From Candidatus Omnitrophota bacterium (lineage in GTDB: Bacteria; Omnitrophota; Gorgyraeia; Zapsychrales; JANLHA01): a DNA stretch of 64,000 nt. The stretch is from positions 6,726 to 70,725 of the forward strand of contig JBFMEN010000062.1 of assembly GCA_040753435.1 (NCBI GenBank), read 5' to 3'. The notes under the pieces were generated by a model, which was given only the letters and a program-made list of their open reading frames with translations, was not told where the DNA came from and did not search any database. Of this stretch, positions 20,061-31,876 are shown in pieces. Position numbers and translations under genes: made by a program. Numbering within the stretch: the stretch's first letter is position 1; each line of letters starts with the position of its first letter.

Positions 20061-23000
20061 TTACTGATTTAATAAAACCGGCAGGTCGTAAACAGGCTGG
20101 ATTTGAATGATGACCGGGGTCAGCCCCTGGATGGGCAATTCGGGATTAACGCGAAGTTCATCCGGAATGTTTAACCGGATGCCTTGCCCCCGGCGACCGA
20201 GTTTGAGCCGGGAGGGATTAAGATCAATACCGCCCGGCGGTTGATCTGCTCCTGTCCTGGCGGAATCAACGGATTGTTTGATCTGCTTGATTTTTTTTGT
20301 CAGTAATTCATCATGTCCTCCGAACATCGCATATTGCAAAGCGCGCAGCAAGTAGTGCGGATGATAAGCATCTTTTCCTCCGGAAAATGTTTTTCCTTTT
20401 AATGCGATGGATCTCGCCTTTCCCTGCAAATGCAGCCGCGCCGTCTTTCCGTCAGCCGTTATGACAAGCCATTCTCCGTCGAACGACAATTTCAGAATCT
20501 CGCCCTGGACATAGTATTCGCCCAGCTCATGAAATATGGAAATGCTGTTATCGGATAAATCCCGGGCCAGAGCGATCAGCTTTTTTTCAAAAGAAGCGAT
20601 GCCGAGGAAATCCGCAACCGGATCGGTAAACAGCCTGAGCTCCGGCGGTGAATTTTCCAGTAATCGCAGGAATGCGTCGATGATCTGCTGATTATGCGGG
20701 TTGACACTCTCATTTTTTAATCCGGTTAAAGCAGTCTCAAGATGCCCGCGGCCGTTCTCGACCGTTATCAGATCCCGCACGCCGAGCAAATGGTTTTCCC
20801 TGTCGTAAAGATGGAGTTCATCTTCCCCGCCATCATCATTGCTGACAATTTCTCCGTGAGCGTTTTTGCCGATCAAACCGGCGAGGACGGGAATCGTTTC
20901 ATTAAGAAAAGGTTCTGTGACCCGATCCTCCTTCTGCCCAAATGAGAAATACCGGACGCTTCCGTCACCGTTATGGTTAACACCCAAAAGCGCCCGTAAT
21001 TGCCGCTGTTGTTCGGGCGTTAACGTTATAAAGATCGTAAGGTCTTCCCTGAAGGCGATCTTTTCAATTGTTTCCGCCCGGACGATGTGTTTGCCTTTGA
21101 GCTCGCTGTCTTCTCCGGTCGCTTCCTTAATCCCTTTCAGCATTGTCGATCTGGGATCTTCTTCGGATTCGGAAAAACCCGTGGCTTGCGTTCCGCGATT
21201 TGCTGCGGTCACGATGCTGAAGGAATCTGTGATCGTTATTGACGCCTTTTGAAGGAGGTTCAGGACCCGGGTAGCATAATCCCCGCAGTAGCAGGAGTCG
21301 ATCATAATAACGAGGTCCGAAAGAACGCCTCCGGAACCAGAGGCCCGTTCGATGAGATCATCTGCGAGTTCCTTGTAGCTGATTCCGTCGGGATGCGAGA
21401 GGTTCTCTGATTTTTCTTTGCCTTCCTGCCCGCCGCGCAGCCAGAAATGATTTGGACCGCCGTGGCCGTTAAGGTAAATAAAGGTCTTTCCTGGAGAAGT
21501 CCGGATCTCTTTTCTCAGCGCGTCCTTTCCGTAATAAGCCAAACCGTCGTAGGCCTTGACGCGCTTATCGAAAGAGTCTTCGCCGGGTCTGGCGCCGATG
21601 AACTGGCTGATGAAATTTTTAATATATTCTGTTGAAAAGATAAGGCTGTCGTCATTGGTGCCGATAATAACGGAGTAGCCCCGATCAAGAAGTGTTTTTT
21701 CAAGAAAGTCTTCGCGGATTTTGAGGATGAACGGGATGAGCGCGGAGATCTTTTCATCATCCAGGCCCAGGCCGTGTGTTTTTAAAACAGTGTCAACCGC
21801 GCGCGCGACGGAGAATTGGTTCACGGAATGAAGGTCTTTTGTCATTTTACTGAATTCTTTATTTGAGTAGATCAGCAGATAATCTTGCAGCGAAATGACC
21901 CCCTTGCCCAGTTCAGCCCAGCGATAGGAGAGATTAAGAAAAAGCCTTTTTTGCGGATGTTCATTCGATAAATTGAACCCGACGGCCCATATCGCCCATG
22001 TTGCGATGCCCTTGTCCTCCTCATAAAGTTTGAGGATCGCAGGAAGGAGGTGATTTTTTAAGATACCTTCCGGATCTGCCCCGATGCTTTGACTGACTGT
22101 TCCGATCGCGTCCACTGCCTGGTTGAAGACTTCGTCATTCTCATCTTTTAATCCGTAATTGAAGATGACAGGAATAATTTCATTTTTAAGGAGCGGGAGG
22201 TCGGTCAATCCCATCTTGGCCAGCGAAGAGATGGCCCAGTCGGCGGATATGCCGTCTTTGTTCCTGATTCCGTTCAGAATTGAGTTGATGATCGCAAGTC
22301 TTGCCGGAGATTCTTCAGGAACTTCTTCCCGGATGTTTTCCAGAACCATGGCGGCATGAAGCCGGAACCATTCGGAAAAGAAAAGGGAGTGGACCAGGGT
22401 GGGAATAATCTTTTCTTCAAGAACCGGATCATCTTTCAGCTGCAGGGCAGCATTTTTCAGCAGGGCAAATGACCTGATTCCAAGGTTCTCATCCAGCAGA
22501 AAAGGCAGGAGATGTTTTTTGGTGAATTCTGGTTCCTGAAGATCAATGATGGCCTGGCCGGCGCCCTTAATAATGATACCGGCGGAGATTTCTCTCCTTG
22601 CGATCAAATCCAGTACCGGTTGAATGACGCGGGTTTTGACGAAATGTTTCTTGCCGGCGGTATCCGCGTCTCCGTCCATTTTTGCGATGATGGTGAAGAT
22701 AGTGTTTTCTATTGCCTGGTCCGGATTCCTGTCCTTCAGCCTGGAGATCAGGAAATCAACTGCTTCCGGTCCCATCGCCGTCAGTTCCTTCCACTGCCGG
22801 CCGGCATAATAAAAAATTTTCTTGTCTTCCGGCAGTAGAGGCTCCCAGCCGATTTTTTTCAACACATCAGCGCCGTGCAGGCGGACCGACGGTTCGGGAT
22901 TGGTCAGATTGCCCCGGAATTTATTAATAATCATATCTTTGACGGGATTCGGCTGTGAAAATGATCGCGCAACCAGGATCAGTTCCCCGGACACGTCGCC

Positions 23001-25124
23001 AGGCGCGGCCAGCAGCAGGCCGGTGATTTGTTTTTTCAAAGGATTTGAATCCGGCACTGATGCGGCGATTCTGGCGAGCGCCCGGAATGGAGAATTTTCA
23101 CCGGTCATTGTTGATTCGGCCGCTTCGTCAATCAGGAAAAGACTGATTTTTTGAATAGCCTTTTTATCACAATGGGGGGAAGATGCGATCATTCCCAGGA
23201 CAGTGTAAGGGGAAGTGTCTTCAATATATTTTTCAGATGACGCTTTTTCTATCATTAACGGGATGACTCGTTGAGTGACGTAGTCCTGATCCGGGAGCGA
23301 GGCCGAGATGACGCCGATCGTCCAGAAGAGATCCTGTTTGAACGGGAGCCCGTTGTCATTGACGGCTTTAAGCAGAAGATCCAGGGCCGCGGCTCCCGCT
23401 TCGGCCAGGGCATCCCATTTTTCATGCGCGAGCAGGTATCCGATGTAGGCCTGGCCATCGCCGGGTCTTTTCGGTTGCGCGTTGCTTTGTTCAAGGATTC
23501 CGGCGGCGATTTTGCGGATATCGTTGTTATTGACGTTTTCAAGAATTTTTAAAGCGGCCGGGATGACCATCGTCCGGATCCGCGGATCTGGTTTATCTTT
23601 TTCCGCGGTTTCCCCAACAGATACAAGATCGGGGCGGTTTTCCGCAAGCGCGATCCGGTACAGTAACTTCGCGGCCTCTTCACGGACTCTCCAGGGTTCT
23701 TTTTCATCAAGAATGGCGTCGATGAGTAAGGGAGCCGCGGCCAGCCCGGTTACGATGACTGGTTCAGCAAACGAAAGGATGTTCTGCCGGTAAAGATCGA
23801 GATGGCTTTTGACCCTTTCCCGTGCAGTAGCATTGATATTCTTTTTTTCCTCATCGGTTAACGGAGCGGCGCGCACCAGGGACTCTTCTGCCGGGAAAAA
23901 TGCCTTTTTGTCGATCTGCTCATTTGAAAGATAATCAGGATTGATCCTGACGATTAGATTCTGATCAGCGCCGGCATCAATCAATCCGGAACCGCTGTTT
24001 AACAGGAGCGCGGAGGCTAAAACGACAAGACCCCGGATCCCTTTTTTAACAATTCCGGCTGATTGTTTGTTCAAAGGTTTTCTAATGATTTTTTTGCTGA
24101 TGTCTTTCCCGAAATCCGCTCCGCCGGAAAAATATCTTTTTGGGGTTGATGTTCTGGTCGCGGGATCGTATTCCTCGCGGATGTAGTCATAAACGCCTTT
24201 TTGGAAGGCTTCGAGATAACGCCGGTAAATTTTCGACGTTGCATCCGTGTCCTCAATATTGATCCCGTTCACCAGGTTCCGGTCTGCGTAAACTTTGTTC
24301 AGGATCGCTTCCTTGAGGTTTTCCTTGAACCAGGCGGCCAGGATCAGCGCGTGATAAATCTGTCTGAGCTGGGCGAAATGAGCGCCCTGATTGACCTCGC
24401 GTTCGATCTCGGGGATAATGATTTCTTTTAACACTTCCCGGCGGAATTCCGTTTCTTCAGGATTATCATGGGTTTCATTGGCGGAACCTTGGTAGTCGCT
24501 TTCCAGCATGACTTTGAGCCGGCTTTCCTGGATGCAGGCGATGTCCTGGTCTTCATAAATAACTGCGGATTCTGGAACGATCCAGACTTTGTTAAAGGCG
24601 TCTACAGGGATATCTGTTGTCCCGTAACGGGCCAGCGCTTTTTCCCGGACGGTTTTCCAGAATTTTTTTCCGGGCGTTTCTTCCGGATACATAAGTGAGG
24701 CGGTCAGTTGTTTTAAAATATAATCCTGTGCAAGAAGGTCGCGGCCCATTTCGGTTTGGCCGAATTTATCAGGGATAATGCGATCCTTTTCCATGGGGGA
24801 GAGGTTGACCCAGAGGTCTTCTTCCGGCACGGTTAAAGACGCCATAAAATACTGGATGATTTTTTTTGATTCCGCTTCCAGCGCGATTGCATCAGGTGCC
24901 TGGTCACCGGTATCGATGATAAAGTCAAAATGGAACGGGTTTTCCGGATCGATGATAACGCCCTTTAAAAGTGGCGGGGTAAAAATTTTGCTTGGGGCGA
25001 CCATGGCGCCGGGTACAGGAAGGTTGAGCAGTTCCTGGGTATAGGCGGGAGTAAGCGCCGAATTCACAGAAAAAGACGCCAGAATCAGGCAGAGAACACT
25101 GTTTTTGATGAACTTGTTTATCAT
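20061..25124 (-). CDS. Giant secreted multidomain protein: signal peptide + novel N-terminal domain (shared with 27324..29849) + HEAT/ARM-like repeats + clan-CD (caspase/clostripain-like) cysteine peptidase domain + shared C-terminal ~60-aa motif
   Basis: Start ATG 25124 chosen (AGAAGAGA RBS, good signal peptide MINKFIKNSVLCLILASFSVNSA); alternative ATG 25172. Peptidase signature FIYLNGHGGPNHF ... ~50 aa ... LVIMIDSCYCGDY (hydrophobic strand-His-Gly and hydrophobic strand-Asp-x-Cys) around 21280-21470. Confidence 0.8.
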   Translation of the reverse strand: MINKFIKNSVLCLILASFSVNSALTPAYTQELLNLPVPGAMVAPSKIFTPPLLKGVIIDPENPFHFDFIIDTGDQAPDAIALEAESKKIIQYFMASLTVPEEDLWVNLSPMEKDRIIPDKFGQTEMGRDLLAQDYILKQLTASLMYPEETPGKKFWKTVREKALARYGTTDIPVDAFNKVWIVPESAVIYEDQDIACIQESRLKVMLESDYQGSANETHDNPEETEFRREVLKEIIIPEIEREVNQGAHFAQLRQIYHALILAAWFKENLKEAILNKVYADRNLVNGINIEDTDATSKIYRRYLEAFQKGVYDYIREEYDPATRTSTPKRYFSGGADFGKDISKKIIRKPLNKQSAGIVKKGIRGLVVLASALLLNSGSGLIDAGADQNLIVRINPDYLSNEQIDKKAFFPAEESLVRAAPLTDEEKKNINATARERVKSHLDLYRQNILSFAEPVIVTGLAAAPLLIDAILDEKEPWRVREEAAKLLYRIALAENRPDLVSVGETAEKDKPDPRIRTMVIPAALKILENVNNNDIRKIAAGILEQSNAQPKRPGDGQAYIGYLLAHEKWDALAEAGAAALDLLLKAVNDNGLPFKQDLFWTIGVISASLPDQDYVTQRVIPLMIEKASSEKYIEDTSPYTVLGMIASSPHCDKKAIQKISLFLIDEAAESTMTGENSPFRALARIAASVPDSNPLKKQITGLLLAAPGDVSGELILVARSFSQPNPVKDMIINKFRGNLTNPEPSVRLHGADVLKKIGWEPLLPEDKKIFYYAGRQWKELTAMGPEAVDFLISRLKDRNPDQAIENTIFTIIAKMDGDADTAGKKHFVKTRVIQPVLDLIARREISAGIIIKGAGQAIIDLQEPEFTKKHLLPFLLDENLGIRSFALLKNAALQLKDDPVLEEKIIPTLVHSLFFSEWFRLHAAMVLENIREEVPEESPARLAIINSILNGIRNKDGISADWAISSLAKMGLTDLPLLKNEIIPVIFNYGLKDENDEVFNQAVDAIGTVSQSIGADPEGILKNHLLPAILKLYEEDKGIATWAIWAVGFNLSNEHPQKRLFLNLSYRWAELGKGVISLQDYLLIYSNKEFSKMTKDLHSVNQFSVARAVDTVLKTHGLGLDDEKISALIPFILKIREDFLEKTLLDRGYSVIIGTNDDSLIFSTEYIKNFISQFIGARPGEDSFDKRVKAYDGLAYYGKDALRKEIRTSPGKTFIYLNGHGGPNHFWLRGGQEGKEKSENLSHPDGISYKELADDLIERASGSGGVLSDLVIMIDSCYCGDYATRVLNLLQKASITITDSFSIVTAANRGTQATGFSESEEDPRSTMLKGIKEATGEDSELKGKHIVRAETIEKIAFREDLTIFITLTPEQQRQLRALLGVNHNGDGSVRYFSFGQKEDRVTEPFLNETIPVLAGLIGKNAHGEIVSNDDGGEDELHLYDRENHLLGVRDLITVENGRGHLETALTGLKNESVNPHNQQIIDAFLRLLENSPPELRLFTDPVADFLGIASFEKKLIALARDLSDNSISIFHELGEYYVQGEILKLSFDGEWLVITADGKTARLHLQGKARSIALKGKTFSGGKDAYHPHYLLRALQYAMFGGHDELLTKKIKQIKQSVDSARTGADQPPGGIDLNPSRLKLGRRGQGIRLNIPDELRVNPELPIQGLTPVIIQIQPVYDLPVLLNQ

Positions 25125-25389
25125 TCTCTTCTCAGGTAAAAAAGGTAATATAAGGAATTTAAAGCTAAGCATAGAACATTTTTGAGCAAAAAACCAGTGC
25201 TTCCCCGGGTTATTTTATTCAAAAGTGGACACTTTTTGACGAATTCCGGCCGGATATTCTTCCGATATTTCAGGACCTGCCGTGCTTGCAGATTAACTTG
25301 TCCCTGTTCGTTGACATCCCGGTCTGATCGGCTATAATTTCATGGGATGAGACAAACGATGGATTGATTCATAACGATGGAGGTGTGTG

Positions 25390-25848
25390 ATGAGAAAAGG
25401 TTTATTAAGTGCAGTGATGGTTTTGGCCCTGATGGTTTCTCCGGTTTTTGCGCAAGAGCCGGCAGCGCCGCAGGAAGGCACAGTTCAGCCGGGGGCCGGT
25501 TACGGCTATGGCATGAAAAATCGTGAAATGATGGGGCGCGGCAAGTTCCTGGAGAAGAAGATGATGATGGGAAAGATGTGTGCCGCGGGCGACATCATGA
25601 AAATCATGATGAAGACGACCGTGACTGTCACGCCCGATGGCGGCGTTATTGTCTTGCGGGGAAACAGTCTGGCGAAGTATGACAAAAATCTGAATCTCGT
25701 CAAAGAGGTTCAATTGAAAGACATGACCGAAGAGATTCAGCAGAAGATGCAAAAGATGATGAAGGAATGCCCGGTGATGCAGCAGAGAATGGGTGATGAT
25801 GATATGATGATGGAACCCGAAGAGATGGAGCCTGAGCCGGCGGAATAA
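25390..25848 (+). CDS. Methionine-rich secreted protein (signal peptide; ~28 Met in 152 aa)
   Basis: GGAGGTG RBS then ATG 25390; N-terminal signal peptide LLSAVMVLALMVSPVFAQEP; Met-rich blocks KKMMMGKM, MKIMMK, MQKMMKECPVMQQRMGDDDMMMEPEEME. Confidence 0.7.
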   Translation: MRKGLLSAVMVLALMVSPVFAQEPAAPQEGTVQPGAGYGYGMKNREMMGRGKFLEKKMMMGKMCAAGDIMKIMMKTTVTVTPDGGVIVLRGNSLAKYDKNLNLVKEVQLKDMTEEIQQKMQKMMKECPVMQQRMGDDDMMMEPEEMEPEPAE

Positions 25849-25861
25849 TTTTTTTTGTGAG

Positions 25862-25894
25862 TAGAGACGTCCCGGCGGGACGTCTCTACTCGAG
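25862..25894. terminator. Perfect 16-bp-arm palindromic stem-loop after Met-rich gene
   Basis: gagtagagacgtcccg / cgggacgtctctactc inverted repeat, preceded by T8 run; orientation of termination ambiguous. Confidence 0.5.
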
Positions 25895-26135
25895 GTGGTG
25901 TGAACATATCGGGCGGGTTTTCCCGCCCTTTTTTATCGCGATTGCAGGAAAGGGAACTCACTTCCCTGTAATAAAAAATAATTAGTGACAGGCACGCTTT
26001 AATTTTTTGAAAGGAAAAGTGAAGAGCGAAGAGCGAGGGGTGACCAGGAGCGAATTAAAAAAGAACGAAAATGCTTATTAAATTTGTTTAGGGAAAAATA
26101 AGGGAGCAAAACAATTTCAAAAAGGAGAGAAGGCG

Positions 26136-27278
26136 ATGAGCACGAAACCGGCGAAAATGAAAGACCGTAAATTATTGGCCGGTCATCCGCCGGCACAAAC
26201 CCTTCTTGCTTCCCCGTTAGACAGTTCTTACTCACGATTATTAACTGATATCACCACTGCCTTTCGTACCGGACTTCTTCAGGCGCAGCAACTGCTCGAA
26301 TACGCGCGGCTTGAGACCCACTGGCTGGTCGGGCGGCACATCGTTGTTTACGCCGCGTTTCCGCACAGCGCTTACCCGCTCACTACAGAATTTTACATTA
26401 AACTGAGCAATGATCTGCGTGAGCAGGAAGGGATCGAGATGAGCAAGGACATGCTTCAGCGTTCGGCACAGTTTTTCCGCAATTATGAAATCTTCCCTGA
26501 CCGAACACCGCTGACATGGACGCATTATCTCATCCTGATGCGGGTGACCGATGAAAAAATACGTCTTCAACTGGAGCGCAAGGCGATCAAACAAGGATTT
26601 ACCGTCAAGGAATTAATGGCTGAGTTGGACCGGTTAAAACTGGAGAGCTCTGTCATTCAGATCAACTCCGCCGGCAAACTGGTCTTTGAGCGCGGCAAAC
26701 CTTACACGTACCGGATTTGCGAGAACGAGGATGTGGAAGGGAAAAAGATCCTGGCCATCGATTGCGGTTTCGGCATGTGCCGGGATATCCCGAAGGGAAC
26801 CAGGCAACAGTTAAGTTCCGGGCAGATAGTCTGCACGCAAAAGAGGGCGGACGGCGAATACAGTCTGACCGCGAATAACAAGCGCCGCGGACAGAATTAC
26901 ACCTATCCTGCCAGAGTCCTTAAAATCATCGACGGCGACACGCTTGATCTTCGGATCGACCTTGGATTTTATTTGCGGCTGATCTGTGAGCGCGTCCGCC
27001 TGCGCGGGATCGACGCGCCGGAAATGACCGGGAAGGGCGGGCCCGGAGCCAAAGATTTTCTTGTCAAAACTCTTTCGAAATGTCCCGTTATTGTGGTCCG
27101 CACCACCAAAGCATCCGGGCAGGAGGCTCCCGACGCCAAAGAAAAATTCGGCCGCTGGCTGGTTGATGTGTTTTTTCTGCCGGAGAATGATGATGCGACG
27201 GAGATTGCGGAAAAAGGGATGTATCTGAATCAGTTGATGCTGGATGAAGGCCATGCGGAGATTTACAGGATCAAGTAG
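26136..27278 (+). CDS. Fusion protein: DUF1016(YhcG)-N-terminal-like domain + C-terminal staphylococcal-nuclease (SNase/thermonuclease)-like domain
   Basis: C-terminal ..ARVLKIIDGDTLDLRIDLGF...ERVRLRGIDAPEM.. is the SNase GDT / RLxGIDAPE signature; N-terminal region (..LLEYARLETHWLVGRHIV..) resembles YhcG-type N-domain; no signal peptide. Confidence 0.7.
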   Translation: MSTKPAKMKDRKLLAGHPPAQTLLASPLDSSYSRLLTDITTAFRTGLLQAQQLLEYARLETHWLVGRHIVVYAAFPHSAYPLTTEFYIKLSNDLREQEGIEMSKDMLQRSAQFFRNYEIFPDRTPLTWTHYLILMRVTDEKIRLQLERKAIKQGFTVKELMAELDRLKLESSVIQINSAGKLVFERGKPYTYRICENEDVEGKKILAIDCGFGMCRDIPKGTRQQLSSGQIVCTQKRADGEYSLTANNKRRGQNYTYPARVLKIIDGDTLDLRIDLGFYLRLICERVRLRGIDAPEMTGKGGPGAKDFLVKTLSKCPVIVVRTTKASGQEAPDAKEKFGRWLVDVFFLPENDDATEIAEKGMYLNQLMLDEGHAEIYRIK

Positions 27279-27323: not shown

Positions 27324-29849
27324 TCAATCCAACCGCGCCGCCAGATCCTGTTCCTTTGTTTCAATCGCCTTTTGATCAAATCCTAAAAGGGGAAGGATAT
27401 TCTGGACAGGAGTTACATTGATGATAACCGGCGCCAAACCGTCGATATCCATGTCCGCCAGACCGTCCATCGCCCGGGGATTGAACCGGATACCGGTCTT
27501 TTCGCCATGCATGGTGAAATTGATTTCATTCATATCGATACCGCCGTTGATTTTAGTATCTTCATTTTTGACTAACATGGCTGAATCAATCCCCGCTTTT
27601 TCAGCCAGGGCTAGCATAGTGTTTCTGAGCACTTCGCGCGATTGCGCTTCATCATCGCTCACTCCCCTGACAGGATAGACATTCCCTGCGGTATCGTAGA
27701 GGGTCATTCCAAGGTCCCGGTAAACTTTTGCGGTTGCTTCTCCCCAGTTCTTTTTAAATAATTGCTCTATTCTGTTAATAGCAGCGTGAACTAAAATGAG
27801 ATTTTTTTTGCCAAAATCAGGATTAGGAGAACCGGCCCGGAAATTTTCAGTTAGAATTTTTAATTCATGCATCGCGTCCGCAACCTCTTTAAAAGGAGGA
27901 AAGAAGGAAGGGTTCATGGTATTGGGGTCGATTCGGACCATAAAATCGCCGTAATCTTTAATTAAATTTTCCATTATCCGTTTATGCCGGGGAGTATTGA
28001 CTATTTTTCTCAGAAGTGCTTCAGGATGATCGAAAACTTTTTTTGCGATTTCTTCCCTGACCCTGCGGACTGGTAAATTTTCACGGATGTTGATGGTGTT
28101 GCCGGCGACATCAATTTTTGATATGGACAATACGTTTTTGTCGAGAACGATTTTCTTAATCTTGTCCATAAATTTTTGCATTTTTTCATTATCTTTCCAG
28201 GCTTCTTCAAACTCATATCCGTAAACTTCTCCGATTACGGCGTCATTCAGTTTAATGAATATGGGCCTGCGGGCTTGGTATAAGTGTCTTGCTTTGATTT
28301 GATCAAGAGCCAATCGTAATATTCTTGGGAAATACAGACCTTCGACAAGATAGTCCAGCGTCAGCATTGCCTCGTCGGTTGCAGCCGGCATTCTTCGGGA
28401 AGCCGACACCTTGATACGGTTTTCGGCAACTGTAAAGTTATTGATGCTGTCGACATCAGCGAGAGCGCCTGTTACCGATTCCTTGAGCTTTTTCATATCG
28501 GATTCGAAGTATAACGCGGCATGGTAATTCCAGGGACGTATTGCCATGATTGGTAAACCATTGAGATTCAGGATAACATTCTGGTATTTTGCCAAAGACA
28601 CCTGCGTAAGGAGTACAGGAAGTTTTTCTTGGATAAATTTGCTTAATGTCAGCATCTCTTCGCCGATAGGCGCAACCGGAATTCCGTTTTTTTCAGGAAC
28701 GGTGCGCATTTCGACCTCGAAGGCTGAGCCCTGAATCAATCCCAGGCTGCCGGGATTGCTGACATTCCTGGTGATCATGGCTTCATCCCTGAACCCGCCG
28801 GAAAAATATTGTTTTGGGATGACGGCTTGGGAAAGCGCATCGTAGTCTTCTTTAATGAAATTGAAAACTCCTTTTTCATAGGCCTTTATGTATTGATCGT
28901 AAATTTCATTAATAACATTCACCGGCCGGTCATTCGCCAGTTCAATGCCGCCTGTCTTTTTTTGATCCACATAAATTTTTGAAAGCACGGAATCTTTCAC
29001 GGCTTGCTTGTACCATTTGGCCAGGATCAGGGAATAGTAGATCTGGCGCAGGGGCGCGAAGGTTTCACCGTTATTGATTTCTTTTTCGATCTCGGGCAGG
29101 ATGAGTTCTTTGATGACGTCCTGGGCAAGGTCTTCAACGCTTTCGGGATTATTCAGTGGAGAATCCCGGCCGCCTTGTGTCTTTTGATAGTCCCTGTCCG
29201 TCATGACTTTAAGATGCGCGTCCACAATGAAGACCGTTTGATCATGCTCGTAGAGGGTGGCGCTTTCCGGCAAAATCCATACCTTGTTGAATAAATCGGT
29301 CCTGACATCTGTCGTTCCAAACTTTTCGTACGCCTGTTGATGAATGCGGTTCCAGAATTTCGCCCCCAGTTCACTGTCGGGATTGGTCAGCGTGGCTGAT
29401 AATTGTTTCAGAATATAGTCCTGGGCAAGCAAGTCCCGTCCGAGTTCAGTTCTGCCAAGTTCCTCAGGAATAATACGGTCGGCTTCATAAGGAGAAAGGT
29501 TGACCCAAAGGTCATTCTGGGGGATCGTCATTGAAGCCAGAAAGTATCTGACCAGCCGCTCACTTTCCTGTCTAACTTCGTCGGCGTTAAACCCGCTGTT
29601 ACCGCTGTCGACGATGAAATTAAAATCCAGGAGATCTTCGGAATTGACGGTTAGACCTTTAAGCAAAACCGGAATAAATGCAGGGCTGACATTTACCATG
29701 GTCCCTGGAACAGGCAGGTTGAGCGCTCCAACCGATTGGGCCAGCGCCAGTGAAGGGTTAAGAGCGGTCCAGAAAAACAGGACGTTCATGATTAAAGACA
29801 ATGATTTGCAAAACGAACGCTTGTGTTGCTTTCGAAATGGCCGGAACAT
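27324..29849 (-). CDS. Secreted paralogue of the giant protein: signal peptide + shared N-terminal domain + divergent central region + shared C-terminal motif
   Basis: Start ATG 29849 (AGGAGA RBS; MFRPFRKQHKRSFCKSLSLIMNVLFFWTALNPSLALA signal peptide). Residues ~45-400 align block-by-block with the giant protein (LNLPVPG, DLWVNLSP, GRDLLAQDYILKQL, FNKVWI.PESA, LRQIY, YFSGG). Confidence 0.8.
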   Translation of the reverse strand: MFRPFRKQHKRSFCKSLSLIMNVLFFWTALNPSLALAQSVGALNLPVPGTMVNVSPAFIPVLLKGLTVNSEDLLDFNFIVDSGNSGFNADEVRQESERLVRYFLASMTIPQNDLWVNLSPYEADRIIPEELGRTELGRDLLAQDYILKQLSATLTNPDSELGAKFWNRIHQQAYEKFGTTDVRTDLFNKVWILPESATLYEHDQTVFIVDAHLKVMTDRDYQKTQGGRDSPLNNPESVEDLAQDVIKELILPEIEKEINNGETFAPLRQIYYSLILAKWYKQAVKDSVLSKIYVDQKKTGGIELANDRPVNVINEIYDQYIKAYEKGVFNFIKEDYDALSQAVIPKQYFSGGFRDEAMITRNVSNPGSLGLIQGSAFEVEMRTVPEKNGIPVAPIGEEMLTLSKFIQEKLPVLLTQVSLAKYQNVILNLNGLPIMAIRPWNYHAALYFESDMKKLKESVTGALADVDSINNFTVAENRIKVSASRRMPAATDEAMLTLDYLVEGLYFPRILRLALDQIKARHLYQARRPIFIKLNDAVIGEVYGYEFEEAWKDNEKMQKFMDKIKKIVLDKNVLSISKIDVAGNTINIRENLPVRRVREEIAKKVFDHPEALLRKIVNTPRHKRIMENLIKDYGDFMVRIDPNTMNPSFFPPFKEVADAMHELKILTENFRAGSPNPDFGKKNLILVHAAINRIEQLFKKNWGEATAKVYRDLGMTLYDTAGNVYPVRGVSDDEAQSREVLRNTMLALAEKAGIDSAMLVKNEDTKINGGIDMNEINFTMHGEKTGIRFNPRAMDGLADMDIDGLAPVIINVTPVQNILPLLGFDQKAIETKEQDLAARLD

Positions 29850-30181
29850 TTTGTCTCCTGGTTGATAAAACTGCTTCCTTTGAATGACGGATTCTCTGAA
29901 TCTGAAGTTTCCAAAAACTGGAGCGATTAATTTAAGAATTAGAGAAAAGTGGATTAACTTTATCATATAAAATTATACAAAACAATGGGACAAGCCTGGA
30001 TAAACCAGGACACGAAAGCAGAAACCACCACTATTTTAAAAAAATTTTTAAAAAAGGAGAAAAATGTCAGTAAATATTCCCTCCGCCTATGGTTTTTAAT
30101 AGTAATTTGTAGTTCAATATAGATAATTCACATAAATCAACAATTGCAACCGGTTAAGGCCGGAACAGAGGGGATAGTTCA

Positions 30182-31489: not shown

Positions 31490-31876
31490 ATGGGTTTTAT
31501 TTTCTTGATAAGTTTGTTCGTCGTCATCATTCTCTGTTTGGCTCTGGTCGTCTCAGTTCTGCTGGTTAATCCGTATTATGGATTTCAAATGCACAAAGGA
31601 AAAAGGCAGGGGCAAAGGCTGATTTCTTCGGGACCGTATCGGTTTGTCAGGCATCCGGGATATTTATCTGGCGTTGTGTTGTGCCTTGGTCTCATCATGC
31701 TGTCCTTATTTTTATCGATAGTTGTACGTGCCATCATTTTTATTTACATATTTATTACGCTGATTGAAGTTTTTAAGATGACCGCCAAAGAGGATGAACT
31801 GCTTCACAAAGACCTCGAAGGTTACTCTCAGTATGCTCAGAGAGTTCGATACAGGTTGTTTCCCTGGATTTGGTGA
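31490..31876 (+). CDS. ICMT / phospholipid-methyltransferase family membrane protein (short)
   Basis: 128 aa, 3-4 TM helices, ..SGPYRFVRHPGY.. motif typical of isoprenylcysteine carboxyl methyltransferase family. Confidence 0.55.
   Translation: MGFIFLISLFVVIILCLALVVSVLLVNPYYGFQMHKGKRQGQRLISSGPYRFVRHPGYLSGVVLCLGLIMLSLFLSIVVRAIIFIYIFITLIEVFKMTAKEDELLHKDLEGYSQYAQRVRYRLFPWIW

Follow-up and report, generated by a model that had tools for sequence, protein, structure and literature searches.

The 64,000-nucleotide stretch of Candidatus Omnitrophota DNA studied here (contig JBFMEN010000062.1, positions 6,726 to 70,725; hereafter the window, in whose own coordinates all positions are given) carries a short gene on its forward strand, at 25390-25848, that encodes a methionine-rich protein. 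The coding sequence runs from an ATG at 25390 to a stop codon at 25846-25848 and specifies a precursor of 152 amino acids with 23 Met. The protein is identical to the NCBI hypothetical protein AB1650_08055 of a Candidatus Omnitrophota metagenome-assembled genome. The ATG at 25390 is favoured over a GTG at 25387 because of the position of the Shine-Dalgarno sequence, read from the sequence as GGAGG at 25379-25383 (+), 6 nt before the ATG. Met accounts for 15.1% of the precursor, compared with an average of ~3% in the other open reading frames (ORFs) of at least 150 amino acids in the window, among which the second-highest value is 6.8%. At 3% Met, the binomial probability of at least 23 Met in 152 residues is 2e-10. 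An earlier account of this DNA made from the letters alone (the sequence-only reading) gave a mature protein of 152 amino acids with about 28 Met; that length belongs to the precursor, and the predicted mature protein, cleaved after VFA21, has 131 amino acids and 20 Met. The three Met clusters quoted there are all found in the protein. MxM motifs, which it associated with CusF, CopC and PcoE, occur only twice, and the prevailing spacings are MM (7) and MxxxM (4) or MxxM (3).

The precursor is predicted to begin with a Sec signal peptide (residues 1-21; 25390-25452, +), composed of MRK, a hydrophobic core and VFA followed by QE. The N-terminus reads MRKGLLSAVMVLALMVSPVFA, with cleavage predicted before QE, and the mean Kyte-Doolittle hydropathy over residues 5-19 is 2.4. 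The cleavage site, F-A followed by E or Q, is kept throughout the protein family described below (A in 86%, E/Q in 87%). From these signal features, conserved in the family, we infer that the protein is exported by the Sec pathway and processed at a signal peptidase I site. The signal peptide is followed by a Met/Gly/Lys-rich, low-complexity arm (residues 22-62; 25453-25575, +) that is predicted to be disordered, with a predicted local distance difference test score (pLDDT) below 50 at residues 31-51. Columns of the MM-G-K-G-M type recur in this arm across the family.

The remainder of the protein was modelled using AlphaFold2 with the family alignment as input. A short Met-lined helix (residues 63-75, MCAAGDIMKIMMK; 25576-25614, +) is modelled as helical at 66-74. 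It leads into a conserved four-strand beta-meander core (residues 76-108, TTVTVTPDGGVIVLRGNSLAKYDKNLNLVKEVQ; 25615-25713, +) with a pLDDT of ~96, whose topology is the same when the core is modelled by itself. A second Met-lined helix (residues 110-128; 25717-25773, +) is modelled at 110-126 and ends in Cys127-Pro128. The protein closes with an acidic, Met-containing C-terminal tail (residues 129-152; 25774-25845, +), modelled as a helix at 128-140, in a region that is variable in the family. Foldseek searches of the Protein Data Bank (PDB) with the full and core-only models returned no match at E<0.05, and the fold therefore cannot be assigned to any solved family. The top matches were individual blades from propellers of the NHL, WD40, hemopexin and sema types, and the meander superposes on these at ~1 Å. 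This blade-like meander raises the possibility that single-module members of the family oligomerise.

Pfam and NCBIfam scans of the protein gave only noise, and a word-indexed search found only 6 relatives. An exhaustive profile search recovered 1,113 clusters (at 50% identity) at E<=1e-3, 832 of them at E<=1e-10, and a second indexed search using the family profile returned 296 proteins, nearly all unnamed or labelled 'hypothetical'. Members are mostly 105-170 amino acids long and share a common architecture of signal peptide, Met/Gly/Lys arm, short Met helix, core, Met helix ending in Cys-Pro, and variable tail. The core is near-invariant, DGGVIVxxGNKLxKYDKxLNLVKE, with the longer form sMVATsDGGVIVlaGNKLxKYDKdLNLVKEvEIK, and the window protein retains all 12 of the 12 columns conserved at >=90%. 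The sequence-only reading would have been undermined by orthologues lacking Met enrichment. Enrichment holds across 244 members (mean 14.7% Met, 5th percentile 9.5%, 2 members below 7%). Met is also conserved by position, at 74-86% in columns 63, 69, 70, 73, 74, 116, 120 and 123. Those of the first helix (63, 69, 70, 73 and 74) are 75-86% Met, and those of the second (116, 120 and 123) are 74-83% Met and are spaced i, i+4, i+7. Cys127 and Pro128 are conserved in 88% and 78% of the family, respectively. No publication on this family turned up in a literature search on the core peptide motifs and on Met-rich proteins encoded ahead of copA.

Members differ in motifs outside the core and in domain number. 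The arm of relatives often contains G-M-C-P-M-H, and a CPMH, CPLH or CPMC motif is present in 41 of the 244 members; CPMH also occurs in the adjacent ATPases described below. The window protein has MCAAG instead of C-P-M-H. A C-terminal tail of the HxxHH type (e.g. SEHESHH), found in 32 of the 244, is absent from it as well. Whole-module tandem duplications occur in P0008, P0009, P0012, P0014 and P0096, each with two matched stretches. In the cluster representatives P0010 and P0018, a monoheme cytochrome c domain (PF13442, 45-49 bits, above the gathering score) is fused to two tandem Met-rich modules, a hint that the family has a redox-linked variant.

The sequence-only reading had likened the protein to CusF, CopC and PcoE. 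In profile searches, CusF (PF11604), CopC (PF04234) and PcoE/SilE gave no match to the window protein at E<=10, and none of them is among the 25 families commonest in the matches of 139 members (E<=0.1), which leaves no ground for membership. CopK is the only curated family matched repeatedly by members. PF11525 (CopK) is matched by 2 of the 139 members (best E 1.1e-5) and NF033793 (CopK) by 12 (best E 6.7e-5), while the CopK structure 2k0q appears in a profile search of PDB sequences at E=0.15. In hhalign comparisons, the probability is 66% for the family against CopK and 69% against a CopK-family alignment, with E ~5e-5. The alignment spans 28-29 columns, corresponding to CopK mature residues 40-67, and falls on the beta-meander core, where the family stretch sMVATsDGGVIVlaGNKLxKYDKdL is paired with CopK GKVMETRDGTKIIMKGNEIFRLDEAL. 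This similarity is suggestive of a shared hairpin module, short of membership in the CopK family.

The genomic context of relatives was compared at 80 loci taken from contigs, one genome per species, with ORFs called and three neighbours per side clustered. As labelled, the loci derive from Omnitrophota (45), Planctomycetota (21), Fibrobacterota (5) and Desulfobacterota (5), with 4 unclassified. The commonest neighbour cluster, found at 21 of the 80 loci, is a P-type ATPase with YHS, HMBD, E1-E2 and HAD domains. Of the 76 loci that have a downstream gene, 18 carry the ATPase gene at +1 and in the same orientation, with a median gap of 15.5 bp. The combination CPC, YNx4P and MxxSS, which we take to be the signature of P1B-1 Cu+/Ag+ ATPases, is carried by 17 of these ATPases. 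Two members found independently (P0156 and P0157) also lie directly upstream of such ATPases. Copper pumps of this type are encoded by roughly 1-3 genes per genome, and the +1 frequency of 24% is therefore far above chance, relative to a baseline that is an estimate from that gene number and not a computed control.

Other recurrent neighbours are an ICMT/PEMT-like membrane protein (8 loci), a YHS-ArsP_1 permease (5 loci), DUF5676 (5 loci), an Rrf2 regulator (5 loci), a multicopper oxidase encoded as a separate gene (4 loci), a resistance-nodulation-division (RND) pump (ACR_tran; 3 loci), a small Cys-rich membrane protein (3 loci) and, as judged by eye, a MerR-like regulator (2 loci). The ATPase, YHS-permease, multicopper oxidase or RND pump is present within 3 genes on either side at 28 of the 80 loci. 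Some loci have features of their own. At L001 (2218-3248), the gene of P0003 runs 4 bp into the start of the gene for a thiol-disulfide membrane protein of the DsbD_TM/CcdA type, which could relate to the Cys-Pro of the family. The loci of P0007 and P0005, in L002 (7710-13491) and on the ERZ1426817 contig, share the order TatA, HAD hydrolase, an uncharacterised protein of 254-267 amino acids and the family gene, which in L002 is followed by an uncharacterised 1,091-aa protein.

In the window, the gene is framed by candidate transcription signals. A promoter-like TTGACA-16 nt-TATAAT at 25311-25338 (+), a candidate by consensus match alone, has 12/12 consensus matches and ends 51 nt upstream of the ATG. 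MerR/CueR-type promoters are expected to have a spacer of 19-20 bp, and the 16-bp spacer does not fit that type. The spacer holds a short imperfect inverted repeat, CCGGTCTGATCGG, that could be an operator. Downstream lies a perfect palindrome of 33 bp (16+1+16; 25859-25891), which as RNA is a 15-bp hairpin. A search of the window for its arm gave no further copy, so the palindrome is unique there and was rejected as a dispersed repeat of the repetitive extragenic palindromic kind. It is not by itself a canonical terminator because no T-run follows. The canonical form, a GC-rich hairpin directly before a U-run, is found in the next hairpin, GGGCGGG-TTTT-CCCGCCC followed by T6 (25911-25934, +; hairpin 25911-25928), which begins 19 nt beyond the palindrome. 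The statement that a perfect 33-bp palindrome closes the gene is thus right about the palindrome, and the intrinsic-terminator-like hairpin is the one after it. The fold z-score of 25840-25945 is -6.3. With a consensus promoter and a terminator of its own, the gene looks self-contained and is probably a stand-alone, monocistronic unit.

The divergent neighbour is a 1,703-aa giant protein (20061-25172, -) with HEAT repeats. Its His-Gly...Cys region (residues ~1232-1297) resembles clan-CD peptidases, with a match to Peptidase_C13 (PF01650) at only E=0.15. The true start of this ORF is likely Met17 (25124), ahead of a signal-peptide-like segment. The divergent control region had been put at roughly 215 bp and at 25125-25389; the length agrees with the ~217 bp left if the start of the giant ORF is the ATG of its longest form (25172), and the interval, which is counted to the Met17 start, measures 265 bp. 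An 880-aa protein (27324-29966, -) is a paralogue of the N-terminal part of the giant protein, with ~400 aa in common as judged by eye, and the ORFs at relatives' loci that match one of the two also match the other. Between these lies a 380-aa protein (26136-27278, +) with DUF1016_N (E 4e-12) and a weakly staphylococcal-nuclease-like C-terminus (E 7e-4); a homologue of this DUF1016_N-SNase fusion occurs in L059, ~4 kb from the family gene. A double-receiver response regulator is also among the neighbours. When the window ORFs were searched with the recurrent neighbour proteins of the relatives, the sole match was an ICMT/PEMT-like ORF of 128 aa (31490-31876, +; E 6e-9), 5.6 kb downstream. In relatives, the ICMT/PEMT-like gene is mostly two genes upstream of the family gene and occurs alongside the ATPase in 7 of its 8 loci. 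The ORF in the window may be a remnant of a copper locus or a coincidence.

The reading that we favour, with moderate confidence, is that the protein is a Sec-exported periplasmic binder of Cu(I), and possibly of Ag(I), whose ligands would be Met thioethers, carried by two helices and a flexible arm, and perhaps Cys127. In many relatives it may serve as a buffer or acceptor for the copper of a CopA-type ATPase. Once exported, the protein would bind soft metals, Cu(I) above all and possibly also Ag(I), with its ligands provided by the Met thioethers of the two amphipathic helices and of the flexible Met/Gly-rich arm. The conserved Cys-Pro that closes the second helix may add to this ligand set, and the small, rigid four-strand beta-meander would be the scaffold. 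In many relatives, the gene is apparently co-transcribed with a CopA-type P1B-1 ATPase, and there the protein could accept or buffer, in the periplasm, the Cu(I) that the pump removes from the cytoplasm. Such a role would suit anaerobes because O2-dependent Cu(I) oxidation is unavailable there. In the window, the gene would form a monocistronic unit with a promoter, a strong Shine-Dalgarno sequence, a stabilising hairpin and a terminator, and its product may be a general periplasmic Cu(I) buffer. We infer the role of this copy from its family only. That the protein is a Met-rich binder of Cu(I)/Ag(I) in the periplasm, as already put forward in the sequence-only reading, is supported at the level of the family, by the conserved Met enrichment, the P1B-1 ATPase neighbours and the sub-threshold CopK likeness; no copper gene was found in the window beside this copy.

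Several observations weigh against a role in copper binding. The window protein lacks Met at two of the family Met columns, where it has Ile69 and Ile116. The window ORFs include no P1B ATPase, multicopper oxidase, RND pump or YHS-permease in the search with recurrent neighbours, and 52 of the 80 loci have no obvious metal-handling neighbour. No published metal-binding data were found for any member of the family. The CopK matches all fall below curated thresholds and cover only ~29 residues, and the window protein itself gives no match to CopK even at E<=10. CopK is also absent from the top 50 of two Foldseek searches, a method whose power is limited with such a small domain. The four-Met Cu(I) site of CopK reportedly consists of Met28, Met38, Met44 and Met54. 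Only Met44 and Met54 fall inside the aligned part; Met44 is paired with Thr79, at a position where the family has 79% Val, and Met54 with Leu89, where it has 42% Met.

A different use for so much exposed Met would be as a sacrificial antioxidant, in which periplasmic Met scavenges reactive oxygen, chlorine or nitrogen species and protects the envelope proteins of an anaerobe. We consider this quite unlikely. Redox proteins do occur near members, including an Fe/Mn superoxide dismutase in L006, desulfoferrodoxin and hemerythrin in L008 and rubrerythrin in L002, together with thioredoxin reductase-like and hybrid-cluster-protein-like neighbours (3 loci each) and Tpx-like neighbours (2 loci) that were read by eye and not checked against Pfam. 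The consensus promoter would also fit a constitutive protective protein. These redox neighbours, however, are each rare and are varied, whereas the copper ATPase stands at +1 in 18 of 76 loci, a synteny that this explanation does not account for. No methionine sulfoxide reductase was recognised by eye among the recurrent neighbour clusters, which are partly annotated. The position-specific Met, the conserved Cys-Pro and the CPMH and HxxHH motifs suggest ligand geometry over bulk Met.

Very unlikely, in our view, is an ATP-independent periplasmic stress chaperone or sensor accessory of the Spy/CpxP/ZraP kind, whose flexible Met-rich surfaces would bind unfolded clients. The N-terminal segments of the longer relatives P0005 and P0007 weakly match PF13801 Metal_resist (E ~1e-3), the NCBIfam Spy model is matched by 2 of the 139 members (best E 5e-5), P0086 is labelled 'Spy/CpxP family protein refolding chaperone' by JGI, and histidine kinases and response regulators lie beside some members. 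The window protein and most members have no such match, however, and the Spy-like part of P0005 and P0007 is an added N-terminal extension outside the family core that scores 19-20 bits against a cut-off of 29.2. The predicted fold, a beta-meander with helices, would differ from the all-helical Spy cradle, and Spy-type proteins also leave the ATPase synteny unexplained.

That the protein is a partner or processing substrate of the divergent giant protein with its caspase-like region, along the lines of the sequence-only reading, in which a Met-rich low-complexity tail could be a processing substrate, is hardly credible: the two genes are adjacent in the window, and giant/880-aa homologues lie near the family gene in L045 (339-bp gap) and L058 (~2 kb), but these are only 2 of the 80 loci, and in both the homologue follows the family gene on its strand instead of diverging from it, so the linkage is not a conserved association and the substrate idea is left without support; the window alone has two such paralogues within 10 kb, which would put such adjacency at about the chance rate in Omnitrophota, the protease assignment is weak, and the family is present in phyla where no such neighbour is seen.

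Returning to periplasmic Cu(I) binding, a wider proposal, which we regard as doubtful, is that these proteins are Cu(I) acceptors of the periplasm with a fold not recognised before, and that they stand in for CusF, CopK and PcoE in anaerobes of the Planctomycetota-Verrucomicrobiota-Chlamydiota (PVC) group and related bacteria. One blade-like meander with Met-lined helices would be the unit, which may oligomerise as a multi-site copper sponge, and the cytochrome c fusions would link the binding of Cu(I) with electron transfer, amounting to an O2-independent handling of Cu(I).

The handling of Cu(I) in the periplasm of anaerobes is poorly understood. CueO, the best-known detoxifier, needs oxygen, and CusF, CopK and PcoE are, to our knowledge, confined to a few proteobacterial lineages. 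The present family comprises more than 1,000 unnamed clusters, with genes directly before those of CopA-type pumps in several phyla, Omnitrophota and Planctomycetota among them, and because of this position it is a concrete candidate for the periplasmic partner that has been missing. As the protein is small and easily expressed, the idea is directly testable. With the family defined, many proteins now annotated as 'hypothetical' would become candidates for a part in copper homeostasis.

Met-rich periplasmic copper proteins are a well-known kind (PMC3847284, PMC4335983, PMC11494321). Within that kind, the family is large and phylogenetically distinct, and it is without a Pfam or NCBIfam model or a solved relative. 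The likeness to HMBD (PF19335), the N-terminal heavy-metal-binding domain of the adjacent ATPases, lies in the C-P-M-H common to those ATPases and to the arms of many members; it is a 4-residue motif only, with no domain-level match, and is absent from the window protein. Met-rich helical or flexible segments of CueO-type multicopper oxidases are proposed to recruit Cu(I) (PMC11494321, PMC12041951). Those Met-rich domains are inserts in an O2-dependent enzyme, whereas the window protein is stand-alone and has no oxidase domain.

PcoE/SilE and CusF of Enterobacteria have the same proposed role, in which a small periplasmic Met-rich protein sequesters Cu(I) or Ag(I), or hands it on, beside an efflux system. 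PcoE has been described as an initial copper sponge (PMC3847284), and the likeness to PcoE/SilE extends to disorder, which is likewise predicted for a large part of the window protein. There is no sequence relationship to PcoE/SilE or CusF, however, and the family differs from them in its distinct rigid beta-meander core and in its partner, which would be a P1B ATPase and not chiefly an RND pump.

CopK of Cupriavidus metallidurans (PF11525, NF033793, PDB 2k0q) resembles the window protein, as predicted, in being small, Sec-exported, Met-rich and beta-rich. It is a periplasmic binder of Cu(I) and Cu(II) encoded within a copper-resistance determinant. Cu(I) is bound by CopK in an all-thioether site, according to the title of a study cited in PMC3847284. 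The N-terminal sheet of CopK and its FKDGKMGMEN motif, which is invariant in CopK homologues, are without counterpart in the family. CopK is limited to Cupriavidus-like Betaproteobacteria, whereas the family occurs in Omnitrophota, Planctomycetota, Fibrobacterota and Desulfobacterota. Two Met-lined helices, the conserved Cys-Pro and the long Met/Gly arm, predicted to be disordered, are extra to this family.

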